A DNA stretch of 41,204 nucleotides. Source: Jimgerdemannia flammicorona (Eukaryota). The notes under the pieces were generated by a model, which worked only from the letters and a program-made list of their open reading frames with translations, had not been told where the DNA came from and searched no databases. The stretch covers positions 1-41,204 of the forward strand of contig RBNJ01000112.1 of NCBI GenBank assembly GCA_003990765.1, read 5' to 3'. Position 1 is the stretch's first letter. Each line of letters opens with the position of its first letter. Both the position numbers and the translations under genes were made by a program. Below are positions 14,480 through 41,204 of the stretch, piece after piece.

Positions 14480-14625
14480 ATATTCTCCAGTATTTTTTTC
14501 TTTTTTCCAGATAGTATTATAAGTAGAGTAACTCTTCTACTTAATAAAAAAAAACTGCTTAACCATTTTGGTATATTTGCAGACCTTGTGATCAAGTACT
14601 TTCTCAATTTTGAATTCCTCATAAT
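14480..14625 (-). pseudogene. Chromodomain at the G2 integrase C-terminus
   Basis: EEFKIEKVLDHK...FFIK*KSYSTYNTIW, matching E.E.I...R...Y.VKWKGY.....TWE. Confidence 0.8.
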
Positions 14626-17600: not shown

Positions 17601-18114
17601 TTGAGCAATAGATCTTTGCAGATCTTGGTCAAAGGTATAGTCTTACTATCATTAAAGATAATACTTCTTTTCTCAGTAGCTGGTCTGCTTTGGGCTCCAA
17701 TCCTCTTAACAGTCTGGTGCTGATGTAGTTTCCAATAGCACTACTGTCTAGTAAGACATTGACATTCTGTCTGTAAACTTGGCCTGAGAACTTGATGCAA
17801 CTGTCCTTCTTCTTAATAGTATTGAGCTCTTTGTCCTTATTTTTCTAATTGCTATCAGTCTTCTCAAAGTCAGTCTCTTCCTATCTTTCACAAGGAGAGT
17901 GGTCTTGTTTAGATTCCTCAGTCTATTGGGCTTGATATTTCTTAGATTGGATTTTGAAACCTTTAGAGAGGTATATATAATATTCATCAATATGTTCTAT
18001 ACAGTACATTTAGATAGAATGAGAATATCATCTATATAGTATATAACCATCTGCAATTCTCTTGTACCAGTTTTCATTTTCCTTCATAGTAGTAACCTTT
18101 TGACTAGGGAGTTT

Positions 18115-18183
18115 GTTGATTGATCCAAACCCTTTCTTACCATGGTCTGTCTGAGAGAGCTTAGATACTTCTTTGATGGGGAG
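18115..18183 (-). pseudogene. C-terminal remnant of a dUTPase (motif V) upstream of the G2 protease
   Basis: LPIKEVSKLSQTDHGKKGFGS. The following linker (NKLPSQ..ENWYKRIADGY..YSHSI.MY) resembles that of G3 (NKTPAQ..DQFYKKIEDRF..YPHSVGMY). Confidence 0.75.
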
Positions 18184-19191
18184 TGTAAGTATACAACCTC
18201 TAAGCTATTAAATTATATATCACCCTCAGAACAAATTCAGAAATCATATGTAAGATCATGAAGCTGAGTTAAACCAAAGTTACAGAGCACAAAGCTAAGT
18301 CAACTCAAAGTTACAGAATATAAGATTACATAAACAGAACCTTACCAATTAGGACCAAATGTATATATACTAAGTACTCAGACATATCAAAATAGAACTA
18401 TAATAAATTAAACAAATAACTATAACTCTTAAATATATATACAAATATAACCACTGAGATCTACAACTGCATCTATGCTGATATTTGGAATGCTATTGTC
18501 AACTAAGCCACATCTCTCTTATCCCTTATAAATATCCATAGTCTGGTATCTCTTTACTTTGTAGAAGCTCAATAGAATACTCTGAATATACTCAGTAAAG
18601 TCTACTGAATTAGACAAATCTCAAGCTACTACCAGATTGGCTGTCTTCTGGAAGATATAGTTGAACACCACTATGATACAGATATTATCTAGATATCTCA
18701 ACACCAGAAACTCATTATCTGTAAATACTGAGAACTCTTTTATGAGTATAGCACCTTTATTTTCCTCCTCTAAGTTACTACTGCTGAAATGGTTGCCATC
18801 CTGTCCTATGGCCAAATTTATAATATGATATAAGAACTCAACTATAAGTATATTGAGTATATTTAAACAATGGACAGAACTTTTCTATACCCTGATGACC
18901 ACATTCTACAAATGCCCCAAGTTGGATATACTATGAAGAATGCCTATAATATAATCCAGTTTAATAATGATAAAGCAGAGGATAATAATCCCTCTGACAT
19001 CAATATGACCTCTAGCCAAGAATCTCTACCAGCTCTGATCACCCCACCAACCTTACTGATGAACTTACAATAGTTCATAACTACCTATAAGACCTATTGA
19101 GATAATGACTACTGGTATGAGTACCAACCTGTATTCATATCTGACTACTTCAACTATAATAAAGAGACTAGAGAATATAATATATATCTCC

Positions 19192-20384
19192 TTTTTTTTT
19201 TTTTTTTGTTTAACAGACTCTATGTCCCATGGAATTTTATTGGAAGGGAACCTAGACTGTATAGGCCAAAACCCTCCCCCACCACCCACCAAGCACTGCC
19301 CCCCCATTAACCTAGGCTAGCTATGGTCTAGCAGCTTGACCATGCCAGGCGCAGCAGAGCTAATAAGCCCACACCTCATTCTGTGTACCATGCTCTCCCT
19401 ACCACCAGGGGAAACCCAGCCATACACCAACGACCAAAAGTGCATGCCCAAGAACCCAACATATGTACAAGACCATGCCTGAGCCAAATAGAATAGCCCC
19501 TGCCACCCCAAAGAGAATGACAGGCAAAGAAAAAACCCTCATCAAAGCACAACATGGTGGGTAGGGCCTGGTTCTCCCAGTCGAGGTGAGTAAAGGACTT
19601 ATACATAAGGCAGGAGGAAACCCCCAATACCCCACTACTCAAGTCTGCGGGCCTCGATCACGTTGCCATGTCAGCTCCTGGTTCCAGTTGAGTACAGCCA
19701 AGACGCCTGAAATGGGTAGCCTCAGGCCCCCTGACCCCCCCTGATGACTGGGGCCTCACCCCACTACCTGCCAAAAGAAGCCGAGAGTGATACCTACCAT
19801 CTAACCGTGCCGCACCAATCAAAAGGCCCCACCGAAGCAGCACCTGCCCCAGCCCCAATGACCGCCCCCAGCCTGGCATCCTACTGGTCCACCATTATTG
19901 CCCTTCCTCCTATCTGTGATGGCCATCTCCCCTCCCAACCCGACAACACCCGAAAAGCAGTCACCTACGCCAGAACCATGCTCACCAGGAAGCTCGCCAA
20001 AGCCAGAGGGCCCCACCACAGGCACCGAAGACCTGCAGGTAACCTACACTGGGCACTTGATGCCCAAGGTTGGCCGACTCCCTACGTAGCCCAAGATATA
20101 CCGAGACAATACCTAGTTAGCAATGGCAAAAGGAAGAAGGTGCCGCACCAAAACGGGTATACCCCAGATGCAGCTGAAGGCACCAGAATCCATGAAAAAG
20201 TGGAGGAAGCACCAATCTGACACCAATAAAGGGGCAACTCATCACCATTGCCCTCCTCCCACCATGCCCCTGCAGGCACAGCAAACCAACCTGAGGTAGA
20301 GGGGGTAATATTAGGGGAAAGGGGACTCAGAAGGTCACCTACCAAACCTTGTGACTGGTAAGGTAGCGGAGAAAGGAGCTGATA
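19192..20384 (-). mobile_element. 5'-truncated non-LTR retrotransposon (LINE 3' end) with poly(A) tail and 15-bp target-site duplication
   Basis: Poly-T at 19192-19207; TSD ATAATATATATCTCC (19177-19191) / ATAATATATATGTCC (20385-20399); G-rich minus strand like the other LINEs. Confidence 0.85.
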
Positions 20385-20941
20385 ATAATATATATGTCCA
20401 GACAATCCTTGAGATTGAACTGACAACTCTATCTCCTGAGTGTGAATGAAATAAGTAATAGCTATCAGCATATTATAACTCTACAACTTATAGTACCATA
20501 ATCTATAGAAGATATGCAGATAGTGAATCCAATGAAAGTGAAGATGATGTACTCCTCCTTCACCCACCAACTCTATACTCAGTATATGAGACAGATGATA
20601 CTATCCTGTGAGATAGTGACATAATCCTAATATATTATTATCTGAGCAAACAGAGAGAAGTAATCCAAGAACCACTCTTTCTAGATAACTACTTCATCAG
20701 AGATAATATCATCAATAGTAATATTATTGAAGACTATCTAGACAGCATCTAAATTTATAGATAGCTTAACAGTTATTAGTATAGTTAAATTAGTCTTATA
20801 TAATATAACTATATACTGACTCAGCAGTCAGATGATCTCTTGATATATCAGTTCACACTTATACTATATAACTGCATTCTGACTCAGCAAAGCACTAAGT
20901 ACTATATCCATATTTAGCCTAGTCCAGATAGTCTCTTATTA

Positions 20942-21076
20942 GTATAAATACCCCCTCTTCTAGACCTCAGAATAATAGGTTTAAGCAGATCTAATACAAA
21001 AACTTCTGAACACTTCCTTACAATATCCCTTTACACAATTACTCCTAGTATAGTAATATTATGAATAGCAAATAAA
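20942..21076 (+). promoter_or_regulatory. Putative LTR core promoter (TATAAATA) and downstream AATAAA poly(A) signal
   Basis: GTATAAATACCCC at ~20942 (also in copy 4 at ~32755-32767 on the minus strand) and AATAAA at 21071-21076. Confidence 0.55.
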
Positions 21077-23450
21077 CCTATATAATAACCCACAAACCAC
21101 TCTTAAGTAAATCTATACCCCATTAGATCTCACTCCTAACTATATTATGAAATTTTCTAATTGAGTATTATCTGTAGTGATATGCCAATTCAACTAAGCT
21201 GGTCTTAGTTTCTTGAACTTCCTGAAATATGGAAAATTATAAATATTCAGAATAAGTGCAAAAAAGGACTTTGGTTGAGACATCAACCTGATCTTAAATC
21301 AATAAGTATAGAGAATATACTCTATATAAAATTGATTTTGACTAAAAGAAAACAGTCTTCTAGAATATTCAGAACTTTCAGAAAACCCTTTCAGAACTAT
21401 GTAATAATACTTTAATTATTAACTCTCTTACAACTTAATAGTAGTGGTTTACAATCTAATTCTGCTTTAAGATACTTCCTTATACTACTACAAACCTCTA
21501 TAAGAATTCATACAAGTTGGTATAAAGCCCTATCTCTGAACTGGAATTCATTCCAAACTATCTGACAATCTGGAGAGAATTGAACCTGACAATTTGACTT
21601 CTATACCTGTAATAAGTAGAACAGACTTTATCTATAAAAAGAAGTACTCTAATTAAATCAGCAAATAGATAAACCTCTATATATCAAAACTTCTTACTCT
21701 ATATCCTATAAGTCAAGATGAAGAAGATCTTATAGAAGTCTTCTTTACTCTTCTCAACAAGAGTTTTATTAGCTCTACAAATCTGAGTAACCTAGGACAA
21801 CCAGCAACTGACTTTTTAGCCTTAGTTCCTCATGAAGCCCAAGCCTCTATAGTCAAGTGGCTCAACTTTACCAACTATTACTATACCAGGACCAAGATGG
21901 TCTTATACTACTGCTTCCAGAATTGCAAGGCCTGCCATATTCTTAAAAAAGAAGTCAGAGAAATTCTTTGTCAATAACCTAACTCTGAATCAGAAGTAGG
22001 TCCAGCTATAGCTCTATCTGAAACTAAAACCAATACTGAACCAGATCAAATCTTGATTTAAGCCTATCTGAAATCTGATATATAACTAATACTATCTACT
22101 TTGATACTAAACAAACCCAACTATACAGAGATCAAAGTGAAGAGGAGGAGGAGTATCTTAGTAAATTCAATTCCGGATATACTACCAAAGGAGATATATC
22201 TCCATCAGAACAAAATACATCTATATAGCAATAGATAGTTATCTATTAAGCTCTTATACCAGACCCACAACAGTTACTCTAACAACTTATACAGACTCAA
22301 AGAACACCATCACACTCTGTACTAGTACCTCAAGTCATATCAGTAACACTCTTACCAGTAGTTTAACTGCCTTCAGTAAACAATATAGTAAACTAATAGA
22401 TTCTAGACCTTACAGCCCAAGTAACTATAATGGTAGCAACCATTACTACCTTAGCTGAACAGATCTAATCAACAAAAAATCTGAGTCTACCTACCTTCAA
22501 TATTACTATACAGGAAGTTCGAAAGCTTCATCAGTATAGTTGATATCAATTTTAAAGTCAACCAATAGACTAATAAATAAGTTGCTGACCACTTTCTGAC
22601 AAAAAATTAAGACCATACTCTGGAATAACTCTTTGCTACTACTATGGCCTTTATCTGTCAAGTTGTTACATTCTTCCAAAGATCTGCTAAAGAATAGTGA
22701 TGAACTCTTTCTGAAAAACCTCTTATATAGAATACCTGATCTGTAGTTATTATCCAAAATACAACAAATAATACCCCTAGATATAGAAATCATCCTGTGG
22801 CCTCTGGACTCAAATAACTTATAATTGCTCAATATTGCAGTGAAACTCTGATTGCTGAATCCTGAGCTAAACTCTGTAACCTCAAATTTGATATATATAG
22901 TAAGGAGAAATTCAAAACCTTCTATACAAAACTCAAGTTACTCCTGAACACTATTGGCCTAGGATATATTACTAATGATAAAACATGAAATAGTATAAAA
23001 GCAGACTATTTATTCAATATACTATCTGAATGACTTATAAGAAAAATCTGAGAACAAGGATATTCAGTTGGTTGTGATCACCAACAATGATGTCTGGTAA
23101 GAATCAAGATTATGGTCAAGTGAATCCTGACAGCTAGACCAATTCTGCCTCAAAGGCAATTCAATAATAAGGAAAAAACTTAGATTAAAAAAGAAGAACC
23201 CAAGCATGAAACATTCTGAGCTCCCTCTATATTCACCTCTTAGACACTCTGAAATCCTGAACCTATCCAGCCAAATATCTTCAAGAAACTCACTGAAGGA
23301 GAAAGAAATGAACTTTGAAGAAGTGGAATATGCTTCTATTGCTGAAAGACAGGACATATGGCCAGTGTCTATCCTAACCAAAAACCATGAACAGCAATAT
23401 GAGCAACTGTTACCACTCTGCACTACCTCAATAATCTGACTACCAAGATA

Positions 23451-23862
23451 TTGGACTTTATCAAGCTAAGGCAAACTGCTAAGGCCCCAACTAAAGAAAG
23501 TCCAAAAGCAGTTGAATATGACCTATATATAGCTGAAGAAGCTATAGTTTTCAACCAAGAAGTCAAGCAAGTCTATATAGAAATCAGCATTCAAATTCTG
23601 GAAGGACATATTGAAAGAATATATCATCACAGTAGCCTAGCATTAAAAGGACTCTTAGTAAAAGGAGGAATCATTGATGAAAATTATATAGATGAAATCA
23701 TCATCCTTATCTGAAACCATAGTTGGATACCCTTTAAGATCCCTATTGGTTTTTGCATTGCTCAGATTCTATTTGAGAAAATTAAATTAACTCTGATAGT
23801 CAAGAAAGTCCCAGAACTACTGCCTACTATCTGAGGATCCAGAGGATTTGGCTCATCAAACA
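23451..23862 (+). pseudogene. dUTPase domain of G3, between the gag zinc knuckle and the protease
   Basis: KAPTKESPKAVEYDL (I), HSSLA (II), GGIIDENYIDEI (III), CIAQIL (IV), I*GSRGFGSS (V). Confidence 0.9.
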
Positions 23863-25949
23863 AGACCCCAGCCCAACCTACTATAAACAAAGAAGATCAA
23901 TTCTACAAGAAAATTGAAGATAGATTTATATCAAGTAGCTAATACCCTCATAGTGTTGGAATGTACTCTTCTCAAATAATTAATAATTACTTCTCTTATA
24001 TCAATGAACTGGTCTAAAGGAGAACCAACAGAGGGAAAGCTCCTATAACTGAAATTATTACCATTGGATTAGACAAACTACTTATACTCCAAGCTTTTAT
24101 CAATAGAGCATCTGTCAAGATCATAATAGATAGTAGTATCTCGAGCAACTTTATCAATGAAGAAATAGCCAACAGACTCAAAGTTCTGACCTCTCCAGTA
24201 TAACAGACTCAAGCAGTTGCTATAGCTGATAAAACCTCCCATATCATTAGTAAGGAAGTCTGCAATCTATCCTTCCAAATTGATGACTATTGAGTATATA
24301 TTATACTTCAGATTGTTCCACTTTCTGAATAAAATCATCCTTGGAACTCTATGGTTAAAACAAGAGAACTCTATAATCAATTGGATAAACTATTCTCTAA
24401 CTATCAAGAAAAGATGTCACAACTTCAAACTGCAAGATAAAAAAGACCCACTCAGTTCTAGTGACCCTGGACCAAAGATCACTTACATCAATAAGCTACA
24501 ATTCAAGAAACTAGCTAAGAAATGCCCTCTCTTTATTATCTCTATCTAACCATTTAAAGGAGAATCTGAAAACCTCAAGGAAGACTTTTCCAAAGTTGAG
24601 AGCCATGTTAGACTCTTATTTCAGAAATTCTAAGATATATTTCCAAAGAAACTCCCAAAAAGCCTACCACCTAAATGAGTAGTAGACTATATCATCAAAA
24701 CTATCTCAGATGCCAAGTCTACCTTCAAGTCAATCTACTATATCTCTCTAAGAGAAATTGATGTACTCAAGAAAGAGATTGATGAACTCCTAGAATAAGG
24801 ATTCATCAGACCTAGTATATTGCCTTATAGAGCACCAGTTCTCTTTATTATCAAGAAAGGAGAAGATCTGCAAATGTGTATTAATTATTGAGATCTCAAT
24901 AAATAGACCATTAAGAACTGTTGCCCACTACTCTGAATTGATAAAATATTTAATAGGCTTATCAACCCACAATTCATGAGCTCTTTTAACCTGCAAAATA
25001 ATTACTGGTAAATTGTTATGAAGAAGAGGATATTTACAAGACTGCCTTCTGAACTTACTATGGATATTTCAAGTTCTTGATTATACTCTTTGGCTTAACT
25101 AATATTTCTACAACCTTTCAGATACTAATGAATACCATTCTATATCTATACCTAGATAAATTTATTGTTATCTATATTGACAACATTCTAGTCTTCAGCA
25201 AAATCTTGGAGAAATATCTTAAATATCTTGAACTAGTATTACTGAAGTTTTGAGAAAACTGACTCTTTGCAAAACTCAGTAAATATGAATTTCTCCTGAA
25301 GAAAATTCAATTTCTTACACACATTATTACTCTTAATAAAATTAAAGTAGACTCTAGCAAAATCTCTGCAATCAAGGAATGGCCCAGATCTAAGAAGTCA
25401 AATGACCTCCAGTCATTTCTAGAACTAACAAACTATTACTGATAATTTGTTGTCAACTTTGCCAAGATTACTACTACTCTTACCCAAATGATTAAGCATA
25501 GCAAGAAAGAAGAACAGCTCTGGACCACAAAATAAGAAAGAGACTTTAACAATCTTGCAAATTGGGGATCTAAATAAGACATAGCCTTTTAAGCATTGAA
25601 AAATACATTAATAACTACTCCAGTACTTCAAGCAGTAAACTCTGCCCTCCTATATGAAGTTACTACTAATGTCTCTGATCTAGCTCTTAGAGCAGTACTC
25701 ATACAAGAAGGATACTCAGTGGCCTATTATTCTTGAAAATTCAATATGCTAAAATTAACTATATAATCTATGAGAAGGAAATGTTAACCATCATAGACAC
25801 TCTGATTAAATAGTGACCTTATCTTGAAGGAGCACACTTTACTATATTGACAGACTACAAATTATTAGTCAATATCAAGACCCAGATTACCCTTTCTTGA
25901 AAGCAATCCAGATGGATGAAAGTCCTCACTAATTTTGACTATGAAATTT

Positions 25950-28900
25950 AGTAGAGGAAGAAGGCCCAGTGAGAGCCATGGGAGCAAACCCAGAGCCAGT
26001 GTCAAAGTAAATAGAAGATATGTAGAAGAGCATATATAAGAGGGATGAATAAAGAATATAATCAAAAATATATCAGCCATTTATTGCTACATAAAAATGT
26101 AGTCCTTATATATAAAATACAATATTCCAAAAGGGAGAATGTGTCACAACTCAGAGAAAACTGAATTAGGAACCACAAAACTATTGAAGATAAGCAGAAA
26201 TAAAGAGAAAGCCAATTCCAGTTACAGGATAAAAATCACAAATAAACACAAATAAAACAAATCCAAATCGAGATTAAAAAACATCTGCAGACCCTGGAGG
26301 GGTCTTGCACTCACTCTGGGGTCTCAGCCTTACTCTGCTCCCCTCTACTGCCTTTGGCCCCTCACTTTGCTCAGGATTGCTGTGGCTTGCTCTGTTTTGG
26401 CCTCACCCCTTGCTCACACTCACCCCTCTGGGGTCTGCAGATGTTTTTTAATCTTAATTTAGATTTGTTTTATTTGTATTTGTTTGTAATTTTTAGCCTG
26501 CAACTAGGATTGACTCCCTCTTTATCTCTACTTATCTCTGGTGATCATATGGTTCCTAATTCAGTTCACCCCAAGTTATGGCACATTCTCTCTTTTGGGA
26601 TATTGTATTTTGTATATAAGGACTATATTTTTATGTAGTAATAAATGGCTGATACATTTTCAGTTATATTCTTTATTCATTCCCCTTATACATACTCTTC
26701 TATTTACTTTGACACTGGCTCTGAGTTTGCTCCCATGGCTCCTGCTAGGCCTTCTTTCTCCACTGCTATACCATCTGCCCTCAGGGCCTCCATCCTCATT
26801 GATAAGATCATGGATGAGGTTCTTCCTCCTCCCCCCTCCCCCTGCTTTTATCTCTACCACTATCTCATTTAAGACCTATGTCTTGTCTGCCATTCTTTCC
26901 CTCCTCTTAGACCTTCACCCTTCTGGTCATCTGCTCCTTTCTCAGTTCTGGTCAGTTCTTGCCCTCTCTGCTAAAGAGGCTCATCTCTGCCATGATGTCA
27001 ATGTCATTGCTCCATCTGCCATCTGCTACTTCATTCTCCCCAAGACCCACCACTAAGCCCTCTCCAAAGAGATTCATGCCACCACTGCCACCACCAAGCT
27101 TGTCACTGTCAATGCTGCCACTACTTCTGCTGCCACTACTTCAGCCTCCTTTCACTATACCTATACTACTTTTGTGGCCTTTGCCTCCTCCTGCCTTATG
27201 GATGCTGCCCCTTTCTGTGGTTTTACTGTCCAAGATATTCCCTCTGCCACTACTGATATTAACACTATTCATTACTTCCTCCTTACCAGTACCTCTCTTG
27301 TTGCTCACCTTTATGAGTAGAAAACATCATATACTGTCACTACTGCTCACACCACCACCACTGCTCCCCTGCCTACCTCTCCTAAGGTTTCAGTCTCTGG
27401 GGCCATCTGTACTGAGACTCATGCCACTGCCTATACCAAGGTCCATTCTTTCACCACCACTGCTACCAAGGCTCCTGCCAAGATACATACCTGCCAAGTC
27501 CAACCAGGCTTTGTCAGCCTCTTCCTGGTTTCTCTCTCCCACTAAGACTTCTTCTTCTATTCTCCCTACTCCCAAGTATGACTGCCAACTTGGTTCTCAC
27601 CCCATCAGGGCCTGGCCTTGTGCTGTCTGCTCTGGTCACCTCCACTGTACCTACTGGTACCCAGCCAAGTCCATCTGCCCACATGATGGTATCCCTTATA
27701 CTACTGCTCCTTCAGCTGCTCACTCTCCCTCCACCTCCTCTGCCAGTTCCTCCTCCATCTCCTTTACCCATACTTCTGAATATAAGGGCTATACAAAAGC
27801 CTGTAGCCATAAGATCTGGCACTCTAATGGGGTATGCTCTCATTTATCAGATTTGCCATCTTCAAAAAAAGTCAGAGAGAAGGAGAAGGCCTCCCACTCT
27901 TAAACTTCCTCCCAGTATGGTTCTCCCCTAGTGTCCCTGTCCCTTCTCAGATTCTGTCATTACTTCTGGTGTACTCTGAGTGGTTCTTCATATTGTCTTC
28001 CCTTCATCTTTCCCAGTTGCTTGTCTCAAACTTTGGAGTTTACTCTTCTCTTAGAATACTTTTATCTCCTCCTTTTTCTTTGGATGACTGCCCCCTTTCT
28101 CTTCTTCAAGTCTTCGCCTTATCTTTGAGTCCTTACTTTGTTTTCCCTGCTACTCCCTCACAACTCTCCTTTACTGATCTGACTCATCTTATATGTTTTT
28201 ATTGTGCCCTTGACCTTGCCATCTTCTTTGAGGATCATAGTGAGATACTCTCTCACTATTTTGTTCCTAGCAATTAGGTCCCCCCTCCCAATGTCTCTTC
28301 ATACTGTATATTTCTTGATATGGCTTGCTCACTGTCCATTCCTAGACATGCTCACTCTTACTTAGTTTTGGATATGTCATGCATACTACACTTAAATTGG
28401 TCAAGCAATTGCCTCTGTATTTGCTCACAGTTACTAATAAGAATTAGGATTTTGTACTTATTTCTAAGTCACTCTACCTTGATGGCCTTTTTGCTCTCCT
28501 TTGAGCTGTGGCTTATGAGCTTAGCACTCTTAGATTGGATGAGGTTCTCACTCTCCTTTAGGTTTCTTTAGCTCATGCCAGGTCACTTTTAGATTCTCTT
28601 TTTGCAAACCCCATTTTAAACTTCTTTTAGGACTCCTTGTCCTTACCAGACATTTGTCTTCCAGTTTTCTATACTCTTCCTAAAGTCCACAAGCCTACTT
28701 TGGCCTGGTGTCCCATTACAGCTACTTATAGCTCTCTTATCACTGAGATTTCAAAGTAGTTATCCCACTTCTTCCTCTCTTGGATAGCTCTTCTTCAATA
28801 CTGTCTTGGGCCTGAGTATACTATTCTTTGTAATACTCAGGAGCTCATCCTTCTCTGTTCCACCATTATGCCTATTCACTATTTTTCCCATTTGGCCTCT

Positions 28901-30414
28901 GGTAACTTCTCTTTCTTCTACACTGCTATTCATTTTGATGAGATTGATGATTGTCTTCACTTCTTGAGTTCTATTGTTTTTCCTTTAGATTCTCTGATTT
29001 CATTGGCTTCTATTATTGAGCTTATGCTCCTCATCTGCAACTCCAATTATTTTAAGTCAGCTCTTGGCTCCTTTTATCAGACTTCTAGTATTATTATGGG
29101 AATGAATTGTGCCCCCACCCTTACCAATCTTATTGGTCTGACTCATGAACTTTGTACAATATATAATCCTTCTTCACCTCTTTCAATTATGTTCTGAGCT
29201 GGAGATATCTTCTTTTACCAATATATTGATGATTTCATTGTCCTCACTATTGCTGATATTGATATTCCTAGTGTGTTCTATAGTATCTACCCTCTCTACC
29301 ATTCTATTACCTGGGTGTGTGGTATGACCAGTATTCCCTTTTTGGACCTTTCTATCTCTCTTTCTCTCTTCAGAACTATTGTTTATTCTCATTTTCCCCA
29401 TTTACAATAGTTTCCTAACTTCCTTTCTAATCATTCTTGTCACACTCTTCTTGAATATATTTAGGGTGAGGTTTGTCATCTTGTATTATATTACTCCTAT
29501 TGTTCTGATTGGGTGTCTGCTGTTTGGGTTCTTGGCAACTTTATGGTTCATCATCATGCCTACCCAATTTCTATCATTCATGATCTGATTACTTCTGTTG
29601 AATGGTCTGTTGTTCACTCTTCCCTCCTCTCTCTCCTTTATCCCCCCTCCCTTCCCTCTCTTCTCTCTTACCCTCTCTGTATCCCCTTTTCATTTCCATC
29701 CTTGATTCTTGTCATACCATTTGATCATACTTGCTGGGTTGCTCAACACCCTGACACTATCCTGCACTCTTCTCTTTCATGCCATGGACTTTTGTCTCTT
29801 TCTTGACACCTTCTGATTGCTCATTCACATCTTCCTTCCATTTCTTCTTTAATCCATTACTCTCGTTTTGCATTTTTATCATCTTCTGGTACCTCTGACT
29901 CTGCTGAAGAGGATTAAAAAACATTCTTACCCCCTCTGGGATCTTGCACTTGCTCTGGGGTATTGGCCTTACTCTACTCCTCTCTACTGCCTTCAGCCCC
30001 TTACTTCACTCAGGCTCACTGTGGCTCACTCTATTTTGGCCTCACCCCTCACTCATACTCACTCCTCTAGAGTCTGCAGATGTTTTTTAATCTTGATTTG
30101 GATTTGTTTTGTTTATGTTTGTTTGTGATTTTTATCCTACAACTGAGATTGACTCTCCCTTTATCTCTACTTATCTCCAGTGATCATGTGGTTCCTAATT
30201 CAGTTCACTCTGAGTTGTAGCATGTTCTCTCTTTTGGGACATCATATTTTATATATAAAGACTGCATTTTTATATGGTAATAAACAGCTGATATATTTTC
30301 AGTTATGTTCTTTGTTTATCTCCCTTATATATGCTCTTCTACATATCTTCTGTTCACTTTGATACTGGCTCTGAGTTTGCTCCCATGGCTTCTGCTGGGT
30401 CTTCTTCCTCTACT
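25950..30414 (+). mobile_element. Penelope-like retroelement (PLE) without a detectable GIY-YIG endonuclease; inverted 5' pseudo-LTR arm plus direct pseudo-LTRs
   Basis: PLE RT motifs: PSN*VPP, NKN(L)G, PVFYTLPKVHKP...CPI, FYTAI, NYF...FYQ..IIMGMNCAPTLTNL, YIDD, PFLDL. Direct repeats 26303-26764 / 29942-30414 and inverted arm 25950-26302. Confidence 0.88.
26735..29917 (+). pseudogene. PLE coding region: Ala/Thr-rich N-terminal part, CCHC-like knuckle, RT and thumb
   Basis: ATG at 26735 lies inside the pseudo-LTR. CAVCSGHLHCTYW(C>Y) at ~27619-27660. RT at ~28000-29500. The frame ends ...SDSAEED-TAA at 29917 with no endonuclease domain. Confidence 0.8.
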
Positions 30415-30548
30415 ATTGCCCTAGTAAGGAGAATATTATTGCTGATGTAATCTCCAGACTACCAATCAAAGAAGTTATCCAAACTCTTACCTTGGTTATC
30501 AACTCTATCATAGAATAAATCATTATAGTATGTGCTAATAATAAAGAA

Positions 30549-32269
30549 TATAAGCACACAACCTCCAAACTACTGAAATCACATATCACCTCTGAACAAA
30601 TCTGGAAATCACATACAAGATCATAAAGCTAAGTCAAACTGAAGTTATAGAGCACAAAGCTAAGTCAACTTAAAGTTACAAAATATAAGATTTATATAAA
30701 CAAAATCTTACTAATCAGGACCAAATACATATATACCAAGCACTCAGATATGTTAAATAGAGAACTATAACAAATCAAATAAATAATCACAACTCTTAAA
30801 CATATATACAAACATGATTACTGAAATCTACAACTATATCTGCACTGATATTTGAAATGTCATTGTCAACTGAGCCACACCTACTCTGCTTCTTATAAAT
30901 ATCTATAACTTAGTACCTCTTTACTTTATGGAAGCCCAATGGAATGCCCTGAATATGCTCAGTGAAGTCTACTGTATTGGACAAATCTCAAGCTACTATC
31001 AGATTGGCTATCTCCTAGAAGATATGGTTGAACACTACTATGATATAGATATTACCCAAATGTCCTAACACCAGAAGCTCATTGCTTGCAAACACTAAGA
31101 ACTCTTTTATGAGTATAGCACCTTTATTCCCTGCCTCCAAGTTACTACTACTGAAATGATTGCTACTCTATCCTATGACTAAATTGATAATATAGTATAA
31201 GAACTCAACCATAAGTATATTAAATATGTTCAAACTACAGACTGAACCTTCCTACATCCTGATGACCACATTCTATAAATACTCTAAGTTGAATATATTA
31301 TGAAGAACATCTATAATATAATCTGATTTGATAATGATGAAGCAGAAGATAATGATCTCTCTAATACTGATATGACCTTAAACCAAGAATCTCTGCCAAC
31401 TCTGATCACTCTACCAACCTTACTGATGAACTTATAACAGTTCATAACTACCTACAAGACCTATTAGGACAATGACCACTGGTATGAGTACCAATCTGCA
31501 TTTACTCCTAATTACTTTAACTATAATGAAGAGACTGAAGAATATAATGTATATCTTTAGACAACTCTTGAGACTGAACCAACAACTCTACCTCCTGAGT
31601 ATGAATAAAATGAACTACAGCTACCATTATACTATAATCTAGCAACTCATAGTATTATTATCTATAGAAGGTATACAGATAGCAAATCCAATAAAAGTAA
31701 AAATAAAGCACTTCTCCTTTGCCCACCAATATCTTACCCAACATATGAGACAAATGATGCTATTCTGTGGGACAGTGATGAAGTTCTAATATATTATTAT
31801 CTCAGTAAACAGAAAGAAGTAATCTGAGAACCACTCTTCCTCAATAACTACTTCATCAGAGATGATATCATCAATGATGATATTATTGAAGACTATCCAG
31901 ACAGTATCTAAATCTATAGATAGCTTAGCAGTTATTAGTATAGTTAGATTAGTCTTATATGATATAACTATATACTGACTCAGCAGTCAGATAATCTCTT
32001 GATATATCAGATCATACTTGTACTATATAACTACATTTTAACTCAATAAGGCACTAAGTGCTATATCCATATCTAGTCTAGTCTAAATAGTCTCCCATTA
32101 GTACAAATACCCCCTCCCCCAGACCTCTAAATCTCAGACTCAAATATATAAGAACAATTCTGAATACTTCCCTTCATACAAACTACTTCTAGTATAGCAA
32201 TATTATAAATAGTGAATAAACCTATTTAATAATTCACAAACTATTCTTAAGTAAATCTACTCTCTATTA
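30549..32269 (+). mobile_element. Long-LTR family, copy 3 (3' ~300 bp missing)
   Basis: T(G>A)TAAGCACACAACCTCC at 30549; embedded ORF at 30814-31911 spans 1098 bp, the same as in copy 4. Confidence 0.9.
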
Positions 32270-32297
32270 ATGTGAGCAAATTACTTGTTAGAGTAAC

Positions 32298-34347
32298 TGT
32301 TACATAGTTCTGGAAGGGTTTTCTGAAAGTTCTGGATATTCTGGAAGATTATTTTCTTAAGATCAAGATCAATTTTATATGGAGTATGTTCTCTATACTT
32401 ATTGATTTCAAGTTCAGGTTGACATCTCAACCAAAGTCCTTTTTTGGACTAATTCTGGATGTTCAGGATTTTCTATATTTCAGAAAGTTCAAGAAACTAA
32501 GGCCAGCTTAGTTGAATTGGCATATTGCTATAGATAATACCTAATTAGAAATTTTCGTGATAGGGTTAAGAGTGGGACCTAATGGGGAGCAGATTTACTT
32601 AGAGTGATTTGTGGGTTATTAAATAGGTTTATTCACTATTCATGATATTACTATACTAGGAGTAGTTGTGAGAAGGAGTAATATAGAGAAGTATTCAAGA
32701 GTGTTCTTGTATATTTGAGTCTGTTTAAGTCTGAGATTCTGAGGTTTAGAAGAGGGGGTATTTATACTAGTGAGGAGTTATCTGGGCTATGCTAAATATA
32801 GATGTAGCACCTAGTGTCTTGCTGAGTCAGAATATAGTTACATAGTACAAATGTGATCTGACATATCAAGGGGTCATCTGACTACTGAGTTAGTTCATAG
32901 TTATATCATATAAGGCTAATCTAACTATGCTATAACTGCTAAGCTATTTATAGGTTTAGATACTGTTTGGGTAGTCTTCAATGACATTACCATCAATGAT
33001 ATTATCTTTGATATAGTAGTCATCTAGGAAGAGCAGTTTATGGATTAACTCTCCTTATTTACTGAGGTAATAATATATTAGAACTTCATCACTATCCCAC
33101 AGGATAGCATCATCTGTTTCATATACTGAGTAAGATGTTAGTGAGTGAAGAAGGAGTATATCATCTTTGCTTTCATCAAATTCACTATCTGTATACCTTC
33201 TATAGGTTACAGCACTATGAGTCATAGAGTTGTAGTAAGCTGGCAGTTGTGGTTCATATCACTTGTACTCAGGTGGTGGAGTGGTTGATTCAATCTTGAG
33301 AGTTGTCTGAAGATACAGGTTGTATTCTCCAGTCTCTTTATTATAGTTAAAGTAGTCAGGGGTAAATATAGATTGGTATTTGTATCAGTAGTCATTGTTC
33401 CAATAAGTCTTATAGGTGGTTATGAACTGTTGTAAGTTTATTGACAAGATTGGTAGGATGATCAGGGTTGGCAGAGATCTTTGGCTTGAGGTCATATTGG
33501 TATCAGAGGGATCATTGTCTTCTGCCTTATCTTCATCAAATTAGATTATATTATAGACATCCTTCATGGTATATCCTACTTGGGGTATTTGCAGGATGTG
33601 ATCATTGGGGTATGGGAAGGTTCTATCTGTAGTTCAAACATACTTGAGGTACTTATGGTTGAGTTCTTGTATCATGTCATCAATTTGGCCATAGGACAAA
33701 GTAGCAATCATTTTGCTGGTAGTAACTTAGAGGCAGGAAATAATAGTACTATACTTATAGAAGAGTTCTCAATGTTTGTGGGTAATAAGTTTCTGGTGTT
33801 GAGATATCTGGGTAATATCTATATCATGATAGTATTCAACTATATCTTCTAGAAGACAGCTGATCTAGTAGTAGCTTGAGATTTGTCTGATTTGGTAGGC
33901 CTCACTAAGTATGTTCAGGGCATTCTATTGGGCTTCTATGAAGTAAAGGAGTGCTAAGCTATAGATATTCATAAGGGATAGAAGGGGTGTGGCTCGATTG
34001 ACAATAGTATTCCAAATGTCAGCACAGATGTGGTTGTAGATCTTAGTGGTCATGTTTGTATATATTCAGGAGTTGGTGTTATATGTTTGGTTTGTTTTGA
34101 TTCTTTGTTTGGTACATCTCAGTGCTTAATATATATATATTTAATCCTAATTGGTAAGATTCTGTTTGTGTAAATCTTGTGTTCCATGACTTCATATTGA
34201 CTTAGCTTTGTGTACTGTGACTTCAGTTTGACTCAGCTTTGTGATTGAGCAGGTGATTTCCAGATTTATTCAGCTGTTGTATATATTTTAGTAGCTTGTT
34301 CAGAGGGTAATGTGTGATTTCAGTGGCTTGGAGGTTGTGTGCTTACA
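32298..34347 (-). mobile_element. Long-LTR family, copy 4: complete 2050-bp 3' LTR of G4
   Basis: TGTAAG...GTAACA termini, directly preceded by the polypurine tract AAGAAGGGGAGAGT. Confidence 0.92.
32956..34053 (-). pseudogene. LTR-embedded ~365-codon ORF, copy 4 (full span)
   Basis: ATG at 34053 to TAA at 32956 (1098 bp); acidic C-terminus ...DDYYIKDNIIDGNVIEDYPNSI*. Confidence 0.75.
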
Positions 34348-34361
34348 ACTCTCCCCTTCTT
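34348..34361 (-). promoter_or_regulatory. Polypurine tract of G4
   Basis: AAGAAGGGGAGAGT immediately 5' of the LTR TG. Confidence 0.85.
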
Positions 34362-34789: not shown

Positions 34790-35428
34790 AATTGTATTCC
34801 TGAACTAAGTCAGTTGTATTCTGGAGATTAGTCTTGGGTTCCTATATTACATCATGGATTGGGTAATCTTTCCATTTAACAAGATACTTAGGGTGATTCT
34901 TATAGCCACATTTGTTGAGAATTTGTTCAACTTTGTATTCTTCTTGATCATTAATAATAATAGGTGCAGGTAGTTCAGTGGTTTAGTTTGGGAATAGCTC
35001 ATCATCATTTTCATTATATTGTTTGAGATATTGGACATTAAAGACTGGGTGGATCTTAATAGTATCTGGTAGTACCAATTTGTAGGAGGTTGGAGAGACT
35101 TGTGCAATGACTTCAAATGGTCTAATAAACTTACTATTTAGCTTTATAGATGGTCTGTGCTTGAGGTTGTCAACTCAGTATTCTCAGATATCTAGTAGAA
35201 CTTTTTCTCCAATATCAAAAGTCTCTTCTTAGCAGTATTGGTTAACATACTGTAACTGTTGTTTTTGAGCTCATGATAAGTTCTCAATTGTGATTTGGCT
35301 TAGATTGTGCATTCAGAGTAGGAATTCTTCAATGGCTTCGACTGTAGAGGGTTCATTAGTAGTTTGGATAAGTGTCAGAGAAGTGTTTGGGTTTTGTCCA
35401 GTATTGGCAAAGAATGGGATCACTCTCT
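34790..35428 (-). pseudogene. G4 integrase C-terminus (GPY/F region) plus chromodomain
   Basis: PFFANTGQNP, FDIGEKVLL, KFIRPFEVI..VSPTSYKLVLPDTIKIHPVFNV, EEYKVEQILN...YLVKWKDYP....*EP..NL. Confidence 0.9.
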
Positions 35429-35499
35429 AGTACAATTCATGTTACACAAGACTTCAAGCAACAGTTTTTAACACTACTAGGAGAGAAGGTACTATCAAC

Positions 35500-37524
35500 A
35501 TGTCTTCAAGCAAGAGTTCCAATGGGTGTACTGGGTCGGGGGGAGCTGGAGCTTTCGGCTGGCAGGAGGTAGGGAGGGGTTTTGGCCTGGGGATAGGGGC
35601 CTTTGGAGGGTCGAAAGGTGGAGAGGGCTCTGGAGGAGGACCAGTGTTGGGTGGTAACAGGGGAAGGGCTGGCCCCTCCAGCTTTGCTGACAAGGTGAAG
35701 GGGAGTGGATGGCCAGTTGGAGACAGGGCTGGAGACAGGGCTGGTGCTGCTGTGGGGAAGAGCAAGGCGAGCCTTGGGAGGGGGGGTGGTCCTCAGGTTA
35801 GAGGTATGAGCATAGGGTCTGGAGGAGCTGTGGCTGGGGGTGGGACTGCTGATGGGGGTGTGACGGCGAATAGGGAAAAAAAAAGAGATGTGACGGCTGA
35901 TGGCCAGGGGGGTCAGGGGTTTCTGATGCAGGAGGGGGACCTGGCAGATGGTGTAACAGGGCTGGCGGTGGCCCTGTTGCTCAAGAAATTGATTTCAGAG
36001 TTCACAGTCACATTGTGCTTCCAGGGCTTGGCAGTGATGGCAAGGATAGTTCTGGGGCTGATTTCGAAGCAAGTGGCAGGGGCTGCCTCGGTGAAGTTCC
36101 TGAAGGGCTTGGAGGGGGTTGAGGTGGGCTTTGAGGAAGCGGGCCCACTGGATGAGGCCCTGAAGACTGGAGTTGTAGTTGGAGAGGTGGTGGTACCCAT
36201 GGTGTGGTGCTTGAGATGGGACCCCAGGGTGGTGTAGCTTTTGGTGAGGGGGGTGCCCACAGTGTCTAAGGAGGAGACTAGGAAGAGGGTGGAGGAGGTG
36301 ATGGTGGAGTATGGTAATGTGGTGGATGTTGGATTTCAGGTGTGGGAGGGGACTACGTTCAGGACGGGTAATGTCGATGTCAGGATCCGGCTGGCAGGGA
36401 AGGAGGCCACGGGGAAGATGAGTGACAGGCTCTCGGTACTGGTGTGGGGGGCATTCATCTATAAGGTGTCAAGGGTAAAGGGGAGTGAGGAAGAGGAGGA
36501 GGACTTGTTGGAGGTGCTGGAGGAGTTGGGTGGGGCTGTGGAGAGGAGGACGAAAGCCTGGAAGCTATTTGAGGAGTCGATGCATCTGGAGATTGTAAAT
36601 GGGAAGTATGTGCGCACTGACAAGAAGCAGTGGGAGAGGGCCCAGGGCCGCAAGAGGCAGAGGGAGCTCTTGGCGAGTATGACAGGAGGGGAGAAGAGGA
36701 AGGTGGATGGGGCTGTGGAGTCTGGAGGCATTAAAGCCAGTGTATGGGCTGGCAAAGGAGGGAAGGAGGCGGTGGGGACAGAGGAATGGGCTGCAAAGAT
36801 GCTGGGCCGAGATCCCTATGCTGATGGTACTTTCGAAGTTTGGGAGGTGGAGTCTGATGGCACTCCCCCCCCTCTAGTCAGGAGGGGCCCGGTGGGGCGG
36901 AGAGTGGTGGCAGAAGATATACAGATGCAGGGGGTCCAGCATATTACCTTTGGGGTCCCAGATGTGGCAAAAGGAGGCCAGGTGGTGGCGGTTGGAGAGG
37001 ATGAGCTGGTGGACATCTCTGAGGAGGCATGGGATGAGGCTGCCAGTATAGGTGCTGACACCACAATATTGGATGCAGGGCAGCCGGAGACTCCAGGAGG
37101 GAAGGAGGTGGGGAACTTGCTGTGGTTGAGCAAGGTGATGGATAACCTCGCGGCTGAGGCATTGGGGGATGTGGACCTGCAGGTAATGCCTGAGGAACAC
37201 TGGGCGAGTATTCTGTATAGCGATGGGGTGATGGAGGTGCTGGGGGTGGAGATTCTGGTAATCCTCTTGGAGGAGGAGGGATATGAGGTTGATGAGGCGA
37301 GGAAGGCAGAGCTAGTAGTGGTTGCAGGGGAGTGGGCAGCCTACTGTTGGGCTGAGCGTCGTGGTCTGCAGTTCTGGTGGGAGGCTTGCATGGAGTACCG
37401 TGAGGACTTTGAAGAGAAAGAAGATGGGGCAATGGTAGAACTTCTGAAAGGGCTGGAGGCACAGGATGCTGGGGAAAGGGAACTGGCTGCTGAGCATGAC
37501 TCGGACTTGGCGCAGGAGGAGTAG
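35500..37524 (+). pseudogene. LINE ORF1 (one in-frame TAG at 36235)
   Basis: ORFs 35500-36237 and 36241-37524 share a frame; RRM-like LLVRGVP...YGNVVDV...RTGNVDVRIRL. Confidence 0.85.
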
Positions 37525-37571
37525 AATGTGGACTTGTAGATGATGGGATTGCTCTTTCAACATTATTCCTT

Positions 37572-40500
37572 ATGAACAGTACAACTAACATTTTCTCGTT
37601 GAATGTGAATGGGTTGCGGGGATCAGGGAGGCGAAAAAGCATTTTTACTTGGCTCAAGGGATTGGAGGCTGATCTCTTCTTACTACAGGATGTTTGGTGT
37701 GAGGATGAGGGTAATTGTGTAGAGTGGACTAGGGAATGGGGAGGAGCTACTGCTTGGTTTGGAAAAGTGGTAATTCTGGTGAGGAAGGGTAGAGGAGACT
37801 TGGAGGGAATCAAGAACTGGGGTGATCATTTGGTCTGGGGTGATTGGTGGTGGCTGGGGTGGGAGCCGGTGAGGGTTGGCTCTTGCTACTGCCCTGTGGT
37901 TAGGGGAGAGAGAATTGTGTGGATTGAGGAACTACTGGAGGAGGGTATTCTGTTGGAGGAAGGGGTTGATGTTCTTGGTGGGGACTTTAACATGGTCCAG
38001 GATCAGCGTCTAGACAGAACTGATGGAGGGAGGAGTGCAGGGGGGAGAAGTGGGGGTCTGGATGCATGGGAGGAGGTGGAGAAGCTGAGTTCCCTAGGGG
38101 ATATGGGCAGATCTAGGTGGGGCAGTTCCAGGGTCTACACACATTGGGTGAATGGTTTAGGTACGAGGATTGATTGGATTCTGACAGCCGAGTGTTGGGG
38201 TTTGGATGTTTGGAAGGTGCTGGGGGTGGAGTGGTGCCCATGGTCTGATCATTGGGGACTGTTGGGGCAGGGGCAGTTTGGGGGGAGTGGAGATGGACCC
38301 AGACATTGGTACCTTAACTCCTCCCTGCTGGCTGAGAAGGGGTTGTGGGACTCATGGGTGGAGGGTGTTCAGGCGAAGGTTCTTCTTTGGAGGCATGAGG
38401 GTTTATTGGTGGGTGTCCATTGGATAAGACTGAAAGAGGCTGTGAGGGTCTTTTGGGGAGGAGCTGGTAAGGACGCTGGGAGGCGGAGGAAGGAGTGCAT
38501 GAGGTGTGCTTCTAGCAGGCTGAGAAGACTACAAATGGATTGGGCGGATTTACTTGCTTCTGATGGGGTAGAGGATTGGAGGATAGAGCAGGTTAAGTTG
38601 GAGATATTGGAGCTGAAGCAGGTACTGAGAGATGAGGAGGAGACTCACATACATGGTATAGCTGCTAGGCTATGGTGGCAGGGGCTTGAGGAGGGTGAGA
38701 GGCCTACTAGGTATTTATCAAGGCTCCTTCAGGCTAGGAGGGTGCGACATCGGTGGGAGGGGATCCTAGATACTGAGGGCGACATAGTGCATGGCACACA
38801 ACAAATCTTAGGGGTATTGAAGGAGAGATGGCAGGGTTTGTGGAGCGAGAGTGAAGGGGGTGCTGATGGGGAGGTGATAGCAGATACACTAGGAGAGTGG
38901 GGACTGCTGCCAGTGGATGGACTGGGCGACTTGATCTTACCAGTGCAAGGAGAGGAGATCCAGAGTGTCCTTGTGGCCACTAAGATTGGAATGGCACCAG
39001 GGGAGGATGGGTTGCCATGGGACTTCTGGAAGAAGATGGTGAAGGTCCCGGGCATGTTGGGTGAGATGGCTGCTCTCTGTGACCATGTCCTTCAAAGTAG
39101 TGAGTGGGTTGGAGAGCAGGACCTTGGACTGGTGGCCTTATTGTACAAAGACAAGGGGAGGAGGGAAGATTGGAAGAATTGGAGACCAATCATGCTGCTG
39201 GATATGGACAGGAAGATGGTGACTAAGGTGATCATCACAAGACTGCAGAAAGTTGCCCAACAGGTGCTGGGGGAGGAGCAGTGAGGCTTTGTTGGAGGCA
39301 GGCTTATAGAGATGGGATTGCATGGGTACATGGTGTCATTGAAGGGGCCCAGGCTTGTGGTTTGGATAGAAGGTTGGTCTTTTTGGACCAGGAGAAGGCC
39401 TATGACCGAGTAAGATGGGTTTGGCTAGGCAAGGTGTTGGACCGGATTAGTATTCCACCAGGATTTCGGACCTCTATGTTGAGTCTGCTGGAGAGTAGTC
39501 GAGCGGCGCTGATGTGTAATGATCACTGTGGTCTGGCATTCCCCTTGGATAGGGGAGTTCCTCAGGGGGACCCTCTGTCCCCTATTCTCTATGCCCTTTT
39601 GTTAGAGCCACTGATGGATAGGATTCGCCGGAAGGTGGTAGGGCTCTCTATATATAGTATAGTGTGGAAGGTGGGGGCCTTTGCTGATGATATGGTAGTC
39701 GGACTTGGGTCTGTGGCAGATGTCAAGACTCTCAAGGAGACAGTAGAATGGTATGAGGCGCATTCAGGGGCAAAGCTCAACTGGCATAAGTGTGAGACAA
39801 TGGTGCTTGGAAATAGACTAGTGGGTGGGGATATCATTGGAACAATTGTCCCCACAGGTGAGGTGGTGAGATACCTGGGCATCTTCCTCTCTGTATATGG
39901 TTCTGTCTTGCCATGAGGGTGGTGGGAGAGCAGAGTGACCATTTGGGGGGAGGCCCTTTGCAGCTGGGGAGGCCACCATATCTCTCTGGTGGGGAGGGTG
40001 TCGATTCTGAATGTGTACTGGTTCCCCAAGCTGTGGTACATGGCCTATCACCTGGACTTCCCAGCTTGGGTGGTGAAGAGGTTGACGAAGATGGCAAGAG
40101 ATTGGATTTGGGCAGGGAGGAGGTCCCAGATTGGTTGGGATATGCTTGCAACACCGGTGGTCAGGGGGGGTCTTGGCCTTATAGATTTCCCTAAGAGGTT
40201 GTACTGTCTGCGTGCCTGGTGGTTGAAAAGAGCTGCTGAACTGCAGGGGGGGAGTTGGGTGCTGCTGCTGCAGAAGGTGTGGGAGATGAGGACCTCCCCT
40301 CGAGGGTCCTCCAGAGATCTGCTCGCTCTGGTGGAGCTGAATGGAAGTAGGAGGCTGTGGTTTAAGGGCTTTTGGTGGGGGGTGGTAGATGGTGCCCACC
40401 GGATTGGTCTGCACTGGCAAGGCAATGAGGGGGAGGGAGTGTGGGGGCCTGATATGTGGCGATGGGAGGGACTGCTGCTGGGGGGTGCTCCAATTGAAAC

Positions 40501-41204
40501 ATTTAATCTTGGAGATAGGGTGGAGTGTCAGCAGGGTCTTGACCAGGATCTTAGGCCAAGTGGCTGGCAGGGGGCAGGGATTGGTGAGGAGTGGGACTGG
40601 GCGGGTATCTGGTCTTGGAGTGCTGAGGTGCAGAGATGGCTTCCCCCTAAGTACTGGGTAGTGTGGTGGCGAATGCTGCAGAGGAATATCATGCTGAATT
40701 TTCACACTGGGCATCTGGTGGATGGTGGCCATTTTGATTGTGAGGAGTGTTACAATGTAGGGCAGGCTGGGGGATTTGTGCAGACACTGGAATATTGGCT
40801 GGGGGAGTATGAGGTATTGGGGGACTTTTGGGTAGAAATAGGCAATAGACTGGGTGTGGAGTGGAGGCCGGCAGGTGTGGGAGGCTGCTGGGAGGACTTG
40901 AGATCTCGGCTTGTAGGGGGGGTGGGCGATAGTTGGATCACTGTAGGGTGAGTGTTGGCAATGTGGGTGGGGATGGCGGGCCATTGGCTTTTTGTATTTG
41001 AGGAGGGGCAGTAGGTAGGGTGCCAGGAGAAGATATTATAGTGGGAGGAGCTGTTGGGGGATCTTTTGATTGGATGGTGGGTGGGCTGGGGTCCTCAGGG
41101 TGGACGCCATCACAGTTTGGTGGCGAGGATTTGTGAGCAGAGTGGAGGGAGGGTAGAAATGATATTAGACAAGGTGGTCTTTCATAGGGAAGGAGTAGGG
41201 GGGG
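37572..41204 (+). pseudogene. LINE ORF2: APE endonuclease, reverse transcriptase and decayed zf-RVT
   Basis: SLNVNGL, GGDFN, RIDWIL, SDH; APGEDGLP, NWRPI, Q*GFV.GR (frameshift at ~39310), DQEKAYDRV, GVPQGDPLSP, FADD, RYLG; CEEC..TLEY...FW. Confidence 0.95.

Follow-up and report, generated by a model that had tools for sequence, protein, structure and literature searches.

The window analysed here is a stretch of 41,204 nt of Jimgerdemannia flammicorona DNA (assembly GCA_003990765.1, contig RBNJ01000112.1, positions 1 to 41,204 of the forward strand). It contains four copies of one unit of about 2 kb, found by blastn of positions 32298-34347 against the window and by comparison of the window with itself. 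Judging from the domains that flank it, this unit is the long terminal repeat (LTR) of a Ty3/gypsy chromovirus with an integrase chromodomain and a dUTPase. Enclosed in the LTR, and read in its sense direction, is an open reading frame (ORF) of 365 codons that, from the comparisons set out below, is a formerly coding, lineage-conserved gene. In the copy numbered 4, the ORF runs from an ATG at LTR position 295 to a stop at 1390-1392 (1098 nt), so that it lies wholly within the 2050 positions of the repeat, with 294 nt before it, about 650 nt after it and LTR homology on both sides. In all four copies the ORF belongs to the repeated terminal unit and not to the internal region of the element. 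Coordinates of all features are collected in Table 1.

The LTR copies share pairwise identities of 76-84% and a TGTAAGC-type start, which is common to all four. The 5′ boundary can be fixed as an insertion boundary, because the second ORF (ORF2) of a long interspersed nuclear element (LINE) reaches the TG of copy 1: the stretch 5152-4388, which abuts this TG, matches residues 136-391 of another LINE ORF2 in the window (tblastn, E 4.7e-31). At copy 4, the start of the LTR is further marked by a polypurine tract one base upstream. The sequence-only reading that first drew attention to this locus had described a 2050-bp LTR bounded by TG and CA; the polypurine tract, the shared TG start and the four copies bear this out, but the 3′ end probably lies about 27 nt beyond the CA it named. 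Copies 2 and 4 continue to match past this CA (over 25-47 nt, a score reached by none of 1000 shuffles; the first 27 nt alone, by 2 of 1000), and the LTR therefore probably ends near 32272, at ...CACA/...TACA, and not at 32298. Alternatively, the matching sequence after copy 4 may be leader. The partner LTRs of copies 2 and 4 are either beyond the window or lost. Copies 1 and 3 are truncated and, as their upstream flanks are foreign, may be 5′ LTRs or solo LTRs. Copies 1-3 were also considered as 3′ LTRs, and this was rejected on the lack of homology between their upstream flanks and the polypurine side of copy 4.

Copies 3 and 4 stand head to head (30549-34347), forming a 1.7-kb inverted repeat with a spacer of about 310 nt. 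The break in copy 3 (LTR position about 1768) coincides with about 20 nt that are readable either as antisense LTR or as the leader following copy 2, which suggests a junction formed at microhomology; fold-back or recombination is a possible origin of the arrangement. The ORF of copy 2 is interrupted by an insert (19192-20398) with a GC content of about 50%, a T run at its start and an AT-rich target duplication of about 16 nt. It has no Pfam hit and looks like a 5′-truncated non-LTR retroposon in antisense orientation.

Assignment to the chromoviruses comes from the two sides of the LTR taken together. Upstream of copy 4, the pol gene of its element ends in an integrase C-terminal SH3 domain, directly followed by a chromodomain and then by the polypurine tract; downstream of copy 2, and on its strand, a CCHC-like motif, a dUTPase domain and a reverse transcriptase (RT) fragment appear in the expected order. 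Since the unit follows the end of one pol and precedes the beginning of another internal region, it is a chromovirus LTR. These domain searches used stop-to-stop fragments of at least 55 aa plus short read-through stretches. About 37 nt past the CA named in the sequence-only reading, a decayed TGGTAGCG-like string can be read by eye, which we take to resemble a tRNA-iMet match and to be a candidate primer binding site. Self-priming of the Tf1 type was rejected, the complementarity between the leader after copy 2 and the LTR being no greater than in shuffled sequences (its score was reached in 111 of 300 and in 63 of 300 shuffles). Scanning the window with Rfam and for tRNAs returned nothing. 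Domains of the dUTPase type occur in basidiomycete chromoviruses, in one ascomycete element and in bdelloid rotifer elements, according to the accessible text of PMC2864245 and PMC5408684. The backbone of the element is therefore of a kind already described, and by itself it points to a probably fungal host.

Within the LTR, the ORF stands out from its surroundings by its scarcity of stop codons: in copy 4, there is one stop per 41 codons, versus one per 12 before it and one per 14 after it in the same frame. The sequence-only reading had reported the frame as 1098 nt long in copies 3 and 4 and as partial or interrupted in copies 1 and 2, and we find it so, with copy 1 truncated to 284 codons and the two pieces of copy 2 carrying 14 internal stops. 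It had also claimed that the stops differ between copies and revert to sense codons. This holds for 28 of the 29 codon columns that bear a stop, where another copy has a sense codon, but not for codon 265, where the stop is common to all. The example it gave is accurate: copy 4 keeps AAT-CGA-GCC (CGA at codon 20), where the other three copies have TGA or TAA.

Table 1. Features of the LTR, its ORF and the adjoining chromovirus sequences (positions in the window)
Feature	Position	Strand	Remarks
LTR copy 1	3272-4380	-	LTR positions 1-1146; 79% identity to copy 4; sits in LINE ORF2
ORF copy 1, first 284 codons	3272-4123	-	4 stops
LTR copy 2, a 5′ LTR	18184-21406	+	79-81% identity to copy 4; insert of about 1.2 kb at 19192-20398
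ORF copy 2, first piece	18447-19190	+	248 codons
ORF copy 2, second piece	20399-20752	+	117 codons + stop
Internal region after copy 2	21407-25250	+	CCHC-like motif, then dUTPase, then RT fragment
CCHC-like motif, decayed	23328-23366	+	zf-CCHC E 0.22, below cut-off
dUTPase domain	23403-23711	+	E 4.6e-13
RT fragment, 66 residues	25053-25250	+	RVT_1 E 2.3e-6, 27.9 bits, under cut-off of 29.6
LTR copy 3	about 30549-32271	+	LTR positions 1-1768; 78% identity to copy 4
ORF copy 3	30814-31911	+	365 codons; 15 internal stops
Post-LTR match	32251-32297	-	47 nt past the LTR end of copy 4 as drawn in the sequence-only reading, similar to 46 nt past copy 2 (21407-21452)
LTR copy 4 (blastn query)	32298-34347	-	2050 bp, TG..CA; complete as drawn in the sequence-only reading
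AATAAA	32628-32633	-	LTR position 1715; kept in all three covering copies
Promoter-like module B, after ORF	32760-32892	-	two TGACTCAGC-type sites + TATAAAT
ORF copy 4	32956-34053	-	365 codons + stop; 9 internal stops
Promoter-like module A, before ORF	34130-34237	-	two TGAGTCA-type sites + ATATATA run
Polypurine tract AAGAAGGGGAGAG	34349-34361	-	one base 5′ of copy 4 LTR start
Chromodomain PF00385, end of pol of copy 4's element	34791-34937	-	E 1.3e-9, 38.2 bits (cut-off 25.1)
Integrase C-terminal SH3 domain (SH3_Tf2-1, PF24626)	35016-35210	-	E 1.4e-15

The strongest evidence that the ORF once coded comes from homologues outside the window, with which the evidence inside the window agrees. 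A profile built from the five ORF pieces was scored against 1.84 billion representative proteins and returned three at E ≤ 0.001. Two of these are true matches, and both are open frames. P0002 (247 aa, E 2.5e-93) spans query residues 115-365 and shares the C-terminus of the ORF, while P0003 (128 aa, E 1.3e-64) spans residues 1-128 and shares its start Met. Identity to copy 4 is 56% for P0002, whose alignment needs only two gaps of 2 residues; between P0003 and the single copies it is 69-77% (88-98 of 128 residues). Both proteins stem from short contigs (998 and 1180 bp), taken from ENA in one case and from JGI/IMG in the other, and neither shares its cluster with another protein. The third hit, the repeat protein P0004, matches over 35-residue stretches (E 1.1e-10) and was rejected as compositional (hhalign probability 21%, only spurious Pfam rows).

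The similarity to these proteins increases when decay is undone. For counting, the transition polymorphisms among the window copies were set towards C and G; in the resulting reading the ORF has one internal stop, at codon 265, compared with four in the plain majority reading, and it is identical to P0003 at 120 of 128 positions and to P0002 at 165 of 247. The open frame that had been expected of such a consensus is nearly recovered from the four window copies, but the stop at codon 265 stays. Given the identity to P0003, the window copies are decayed descendants of a sequence close to it, and the database matches together with this restored identity indicate that the ORF was a real gene. Two features of the alignment itself agree. 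No indels separate the ORFs in any of the six copy pairs, and most pairs show 4-7 indel events in each flank (250-650 nt). Summed over copies, there are 16 gap runs before the ORF, none within it and 7 after it, these runs not being independent events; for copies 2 and 4 alone, the 9 indel events in about 913 nt of flank would predict about 11 in the ORF. Furthermore, transversion columns fall at the first, second and third codon positions in the ratio 10/9/22 within the ORF (p 0.022), and are flat in the flanks (12/9/8 and 10/7/5). Synonymous columns make up 17 of the 41.

Relatives with more DNA around them were sought in metagenomes and viral contigs. A metagenome scan with P0003 gave 92 pattern matches, none of which was confirmed, and a scan with a 25-nt conserved DNA pattern gave none. 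Among viral contigs, there was no match to P0002 and none to a 19-nt pattern. With P0003, one stretch of viral contig was reported as encoding a relative and no locus was returned; a relative may exist there.

All four copies, to judge from their base changes, are dead: they have decayed by C-to-T and G-to-A changes and have lost almost all CpG. The window as a whole is AT-rich (39.6% GC) with a CpG observed/expected ratio of 0.10; for copies 2, 3 and 4 the ratio is 0.00, 0.00 and 0.03, and copy 1, the least decayed, has 0.35. Transitions exceed transversions 7- to 11-fold in the ORF. Changes seen in a single copy are mostly C>T (137) and G>A (93), and the apparent T>C (97) and A>G (52) singletons are largely sites where one copy alone retains the older base. 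Arg residues of P0003 are often replaced in the copies by Cys, His, Gln or a stop, as loss of CpG would bring about.

The encoded protein is an orphan, conserved at the protein level. Searches gave no hit in Pfam (GrpE came nearest, at E 0.11), none among PDB sequences at E ≤ 10 and none that was usable in the ESM Atlas: its model of P0002 has a pLDDT (predicted local distance difference test) score of 0.39, and the feature hits of P0003 are unnamed or unrelated clusters with scores of 0.90-0.93. Word searches with P0002 and P0003 returned only the queries themselves. AlphaFold, which had been suggested as a way to characterize the protein, produced no confident fold (mean pLDDT of 30.5 and 35.9 in two models). 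The N-terminal region of about 140 residues is modelled as helices with low confidence, and is Arg-rich in P0003. P0002 is acidic (isoelectric point 4.05; 46 Asp and Glu versus 10 Lys and Arg), contains 23 Tyr, 24 Pro and no Cys, and has no hydrophobic or membrane segment (maximum Kyte-Doolittle window 0.97). Such a composition argues against an envelope-like, Sag-like or nucleocapsid-like protein, and suits a regulatory factor better than a capsid or an enzyme. Composition and position are compatible with an adaptor or an acidic transactivator-like factor; they are what the role must be argued from, since the protein lacks a family, a solved relative and a confident model.

On either side of the ORF, the LTR carries promoter-like signals. 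The window holds five exact matches to TGACTCAGC, all of which fall in LTR copies (0.46 expected; none of 100 shuffles reaches five), and copies 2, 3 and 4 each keep four sites of this type at the same positions when transitions are allowed. TGA(C/G)TCA is the core of AP-1/Gcn4-type bZIP sites. In module A, before the ORF, the two sites (34198-34206 and 34229-34237) are antisense to the LTR, 31 nt apart, and lie within a 31-nt tandem repeat (LTR positions about 111-150). The ATATATA run that follows (34130-34141, LTR about 211-225) precedes the ATG by 70-85 nt, and position -3 relative to this ATG is an A. In module B, after the ORF, the two sites (32884-32892 and 32821-32829, LTR about 1456-1527) are in sense, 63 nt apart, and the TATAAAT (32760-32766, LTR about 1582) is present in copies 2 and 4. 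According to the sequence-only reading, the ORF lies upstream of the LTR TATA box and hence in U3. A TATA-like motif does stand after the ORF, but another stands before it (at about 211), and with such motifs on both sides the placement is not settled by sequence. Placement of the ORF in U3 is plausible on these motifs.

The chromovirus LTR setting, the former coding capacity of the ORF, the conservation of its protein and the orphan status are shown by the results above. Building on them, we consider it fairly probable that the LTR has two promoter modules, with the ORF in U3 and a product of the accessory type. From module A, 70-180 nt upstream of the ATG, a short mRNA carrying the ORF would be transcribed, with its end at the conserved AATAAA (LTR position 1715). 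The genomic RNA would begin at module B, and both modules would share one poly(A) signal. An ORF placed in U3 would be copied to both ends of the element in each cycle and would also be present at the 3′ end of the genomic RNA. Its product may be a regulatory adaptor or a transactivator-like accessory factor. More speculatively, and with low confidence, we propose that every LTR, solo LTRs included, could be an expression unit (a promoter with bZIP sites and TATA, the 365-codon orphan ORF and a poly(A) signal) for an acidic transactivator-like or anti-silencing factor that acts in trans and serves the whole family. If true, this would be a counterpart of retroviral accessory genes, and an element would keep making the factor after its internal region is lost.

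Several observations weigh against the explanation with two modules and the ORF in U3. There is no intact copy of the ORF in the window, and all four copies share the stop at codon 265. Stop counts alone do not fix the strand, since the antisense frame, aligned by codons, has as few stops (5, 15, 16 and 15); the strand is decided solely by the two database proteins, which come from short contigs. Also, the protein has no family, solved relative or confident model to compare it with. The limits of U3, R and U5 are placed here from motifs alone, and TATA-like motifs are common in such AT-rich DNA, only some of them being kept in all copies. Finally, the window contains no element with both LTRs, nor any homology between the upstream flanks of copies 1, 2 and 3 and the polypurine side of copy 4.

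Other explanations accept parts of this evidence and arrange it differently. The one closest to ours, which we regard as unlikely, has the same gene and LTR with module A as the sole promoter: the ORF would then lie in a very long R (about 250-1735), and the genomic RNA would have it as its first cistron, close to the cap, and once more at its 3′ end. The usual U3 layout, tandem enhancer-like repeats followed by a TATA-like run, indeed stands before the ORF, and the sole AATAAA kept in all covering copies stands after it (1715); the ATG with its A at -3 would suit such a message, as would the lack in copy 1 of any other ATG from the TATA-like run to the start codon. Against it stands what is generally held of retroviral biology: with an R of about 1.5 kb, the 5′ LTR would contain a functional poly(A) signal at 1.5 kb from the cap, where most transcripts would end before reaching gag. 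Also, a second TGACTCAGC pair with TATAAAT lies after the ORF. It seems improbable to us that the ORF is a passenger, a gene of host or foreign origin that the LTR of one lineage picked up and that has no role for the element. LTR retrotransposons do capture genes, as stated in the available text of PMC7264820, and no function can be assigned to this ORF; the same text, however, describes captured genes as usually present in one or a few copies. A transduced cellular gene should also have cellular relatives, but no recognisable cellular or host-type homologue appears among the 1.84 billion representatives, only P0002 and P0003, two short fragments of the same family. Moreover, the frame has remained open and free of indels between lineages that are only 55-67% identical in protein, which speaks for selection on the product while it was carried.

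The ORF could likewise have arrived with another small mobile element that inserted in the ancestral LTR and was then copied along, which we hold to be very unlikely. It is bracketed by a 31-nt imperfect inverted repeat (71% complementary; LTR 111-141 and 1497-1527), as termini of such an element would be, but this repeat has at its core the TGACTCAGC motif, of which the LTR contains four occurrences in the form of paired sites; predicted binding sites are therefore a better reading of the repeat than transposon ends. There was no sign of a target duplication, and the ORF has no match to a transposase or other mobile-element family in Pfam. We give almost no credence to the frame being a chance or compositional artefact that never coded: the DNA is AT-rich and decayed and the antisense codon-aligned frame is just as poor in stops, but two independent open database proteins match it with the E values given above, and the absence of indels, the third-position transversion bias and the 120 of 128 identities to P0003 after transition reversion all argue for a coding past.

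The window as a whole is an AT-rich nest of mobile elements. Two related LINE-like elements (35400-41204, plus strand, and 4388-6964, minus strand) share 25-45% protein identity. The right-hand one (35400-41204) encodes an endonuclease (E 3.2e-10) and an RT (E 2.4e-20) and has long ORFs of 245-570 aa; its GC content of 48-58% and GC skew of +0.36 to +0.49 contrast sharply with the decayed, CpG-free LTR elements that it interrupts. The pol of copy 2's element contains a block (25949-30415) with direct repeats of about 500 nt (26272-26764 and 29912-30414, 82% identity) and an inverted third copy (25949-26303). The DNA enclosed by these repeats is C-rich, with open frames that reach 330 aa and lack a Pfam match, and the block may be one more nested element bounded by repeats. 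At 136-1056, on the plus strand, lie fragments of a piggyBac-type transposase (DDE_Tnp_1_7, E 6.6e-11 and 1.6e-3). Two more decayed Ty3/gypsy elements with RT and integrase fragments lie at 8000-12100 (plus strand) and 14467-18204 (minus strand); they have no nucleotide similarity to the family studied here, and the 2-kb LTR does not adjoin them.

A conserved gene that lies wholly in an LTR is a layout known from a few retroviruses; where LTR retrotransposons carry an extra gene, the usual description places it in the internal region. If the layout holds for a fungal-type chromovirus, gene dosage would scale with the number of LTRs, solo LTRs could remain coding, and the LTR would have to reconcile coding constraint with its promoter, R and U5 functions. 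The protein family would be a candidate regulator of transposon expression or of host silencing. It has nearly been missed by public proteomes, with only two fragments among about 15 billion sequences, likely because repeats are masked before gene calling.

Among retroviruses, the closest likeness is to mouse mammary tumour virus (MMTV), in which the superantigen gene sag lies in the U3 of the LTR. Sag is a type II membrane glycoprotein. In both cases the LTR encloses a whole sense ORF of about 320-365 codons, which is thereby duplicated in the provirus, once at each end, and is also carried in the 3′ portion of the genomic RNA. Unlike MMTV sag, the ORF described here encodes a protein without sequence or family relation (by the Pfam and PDB searches above) and without a membrane segment, its host is probably fungal and not mammalian, and its U3 placement is drawn from motifs alone. 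Lentiviral nef and foamy-virus bel/bet only overlap U3, starting in the internal region. They resemble our ORF as extra genes at the 3′ end of the element that code through LTR sequence and are likely regulatory, and differ from it in that here the ORF is complete within the repeat, with LTR sequence on both sides.

Extra genes of retrotransposons offer further comparisons. In the text available of PMC7264820 (Vicient and Casacuberta 2020), which also lists retroviral accessory proteins, the additional ORFs (aORFs) of plant LTR retrotransposons and that of Boty in Botrytis have an internal location, in most cases between pol and the 3′ LTR, and run in sense or antisense. Like our ORF, they are family-wide extra ORFs of unknown function in Ty3/gypsy elements, often orphan and thought to regulate the element; unlike it, none is placed in the LTR in that text. 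From the accessible parts of PMC3485330, the rice element Retrosat2 has LTRs of more than 3.2 kb and an orphan ORF0 upstream of gag-pol. Retrosat2, RIRE3 and RIRE8 share with our element the Ty3/gypsy type, unusually long LTRs (more than 3 kb in rice) and an orphan extra ORF, which in their case evolves faster than pol. Their ORF0, in contrast, is internal and not in the LTR, and the rice elements, from a plant, are not chromoviruses of the type in this window. The nearest described backbone is that of the basidiomycete elements PosPlaTy3 (Postia placenta) and those of Phanerochaete, which likewise have a chromodomain and a dUTPase in pol; the portions of PMC2864245 and PMC5408684 that describe them report no ORF inside the LTR, and one 'additional ORF' is indicated by a figure alone. 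A survey of the open-access literature, with figures and supplements outside its scope, found no retrotransposon with an ORF inside its LTR, and a precedent may exist. What appears new here, as far as this literature goes, is the placement of an accessory ORF of an LTR retrotransposon: inside the LTR itself, and not in the internal region.

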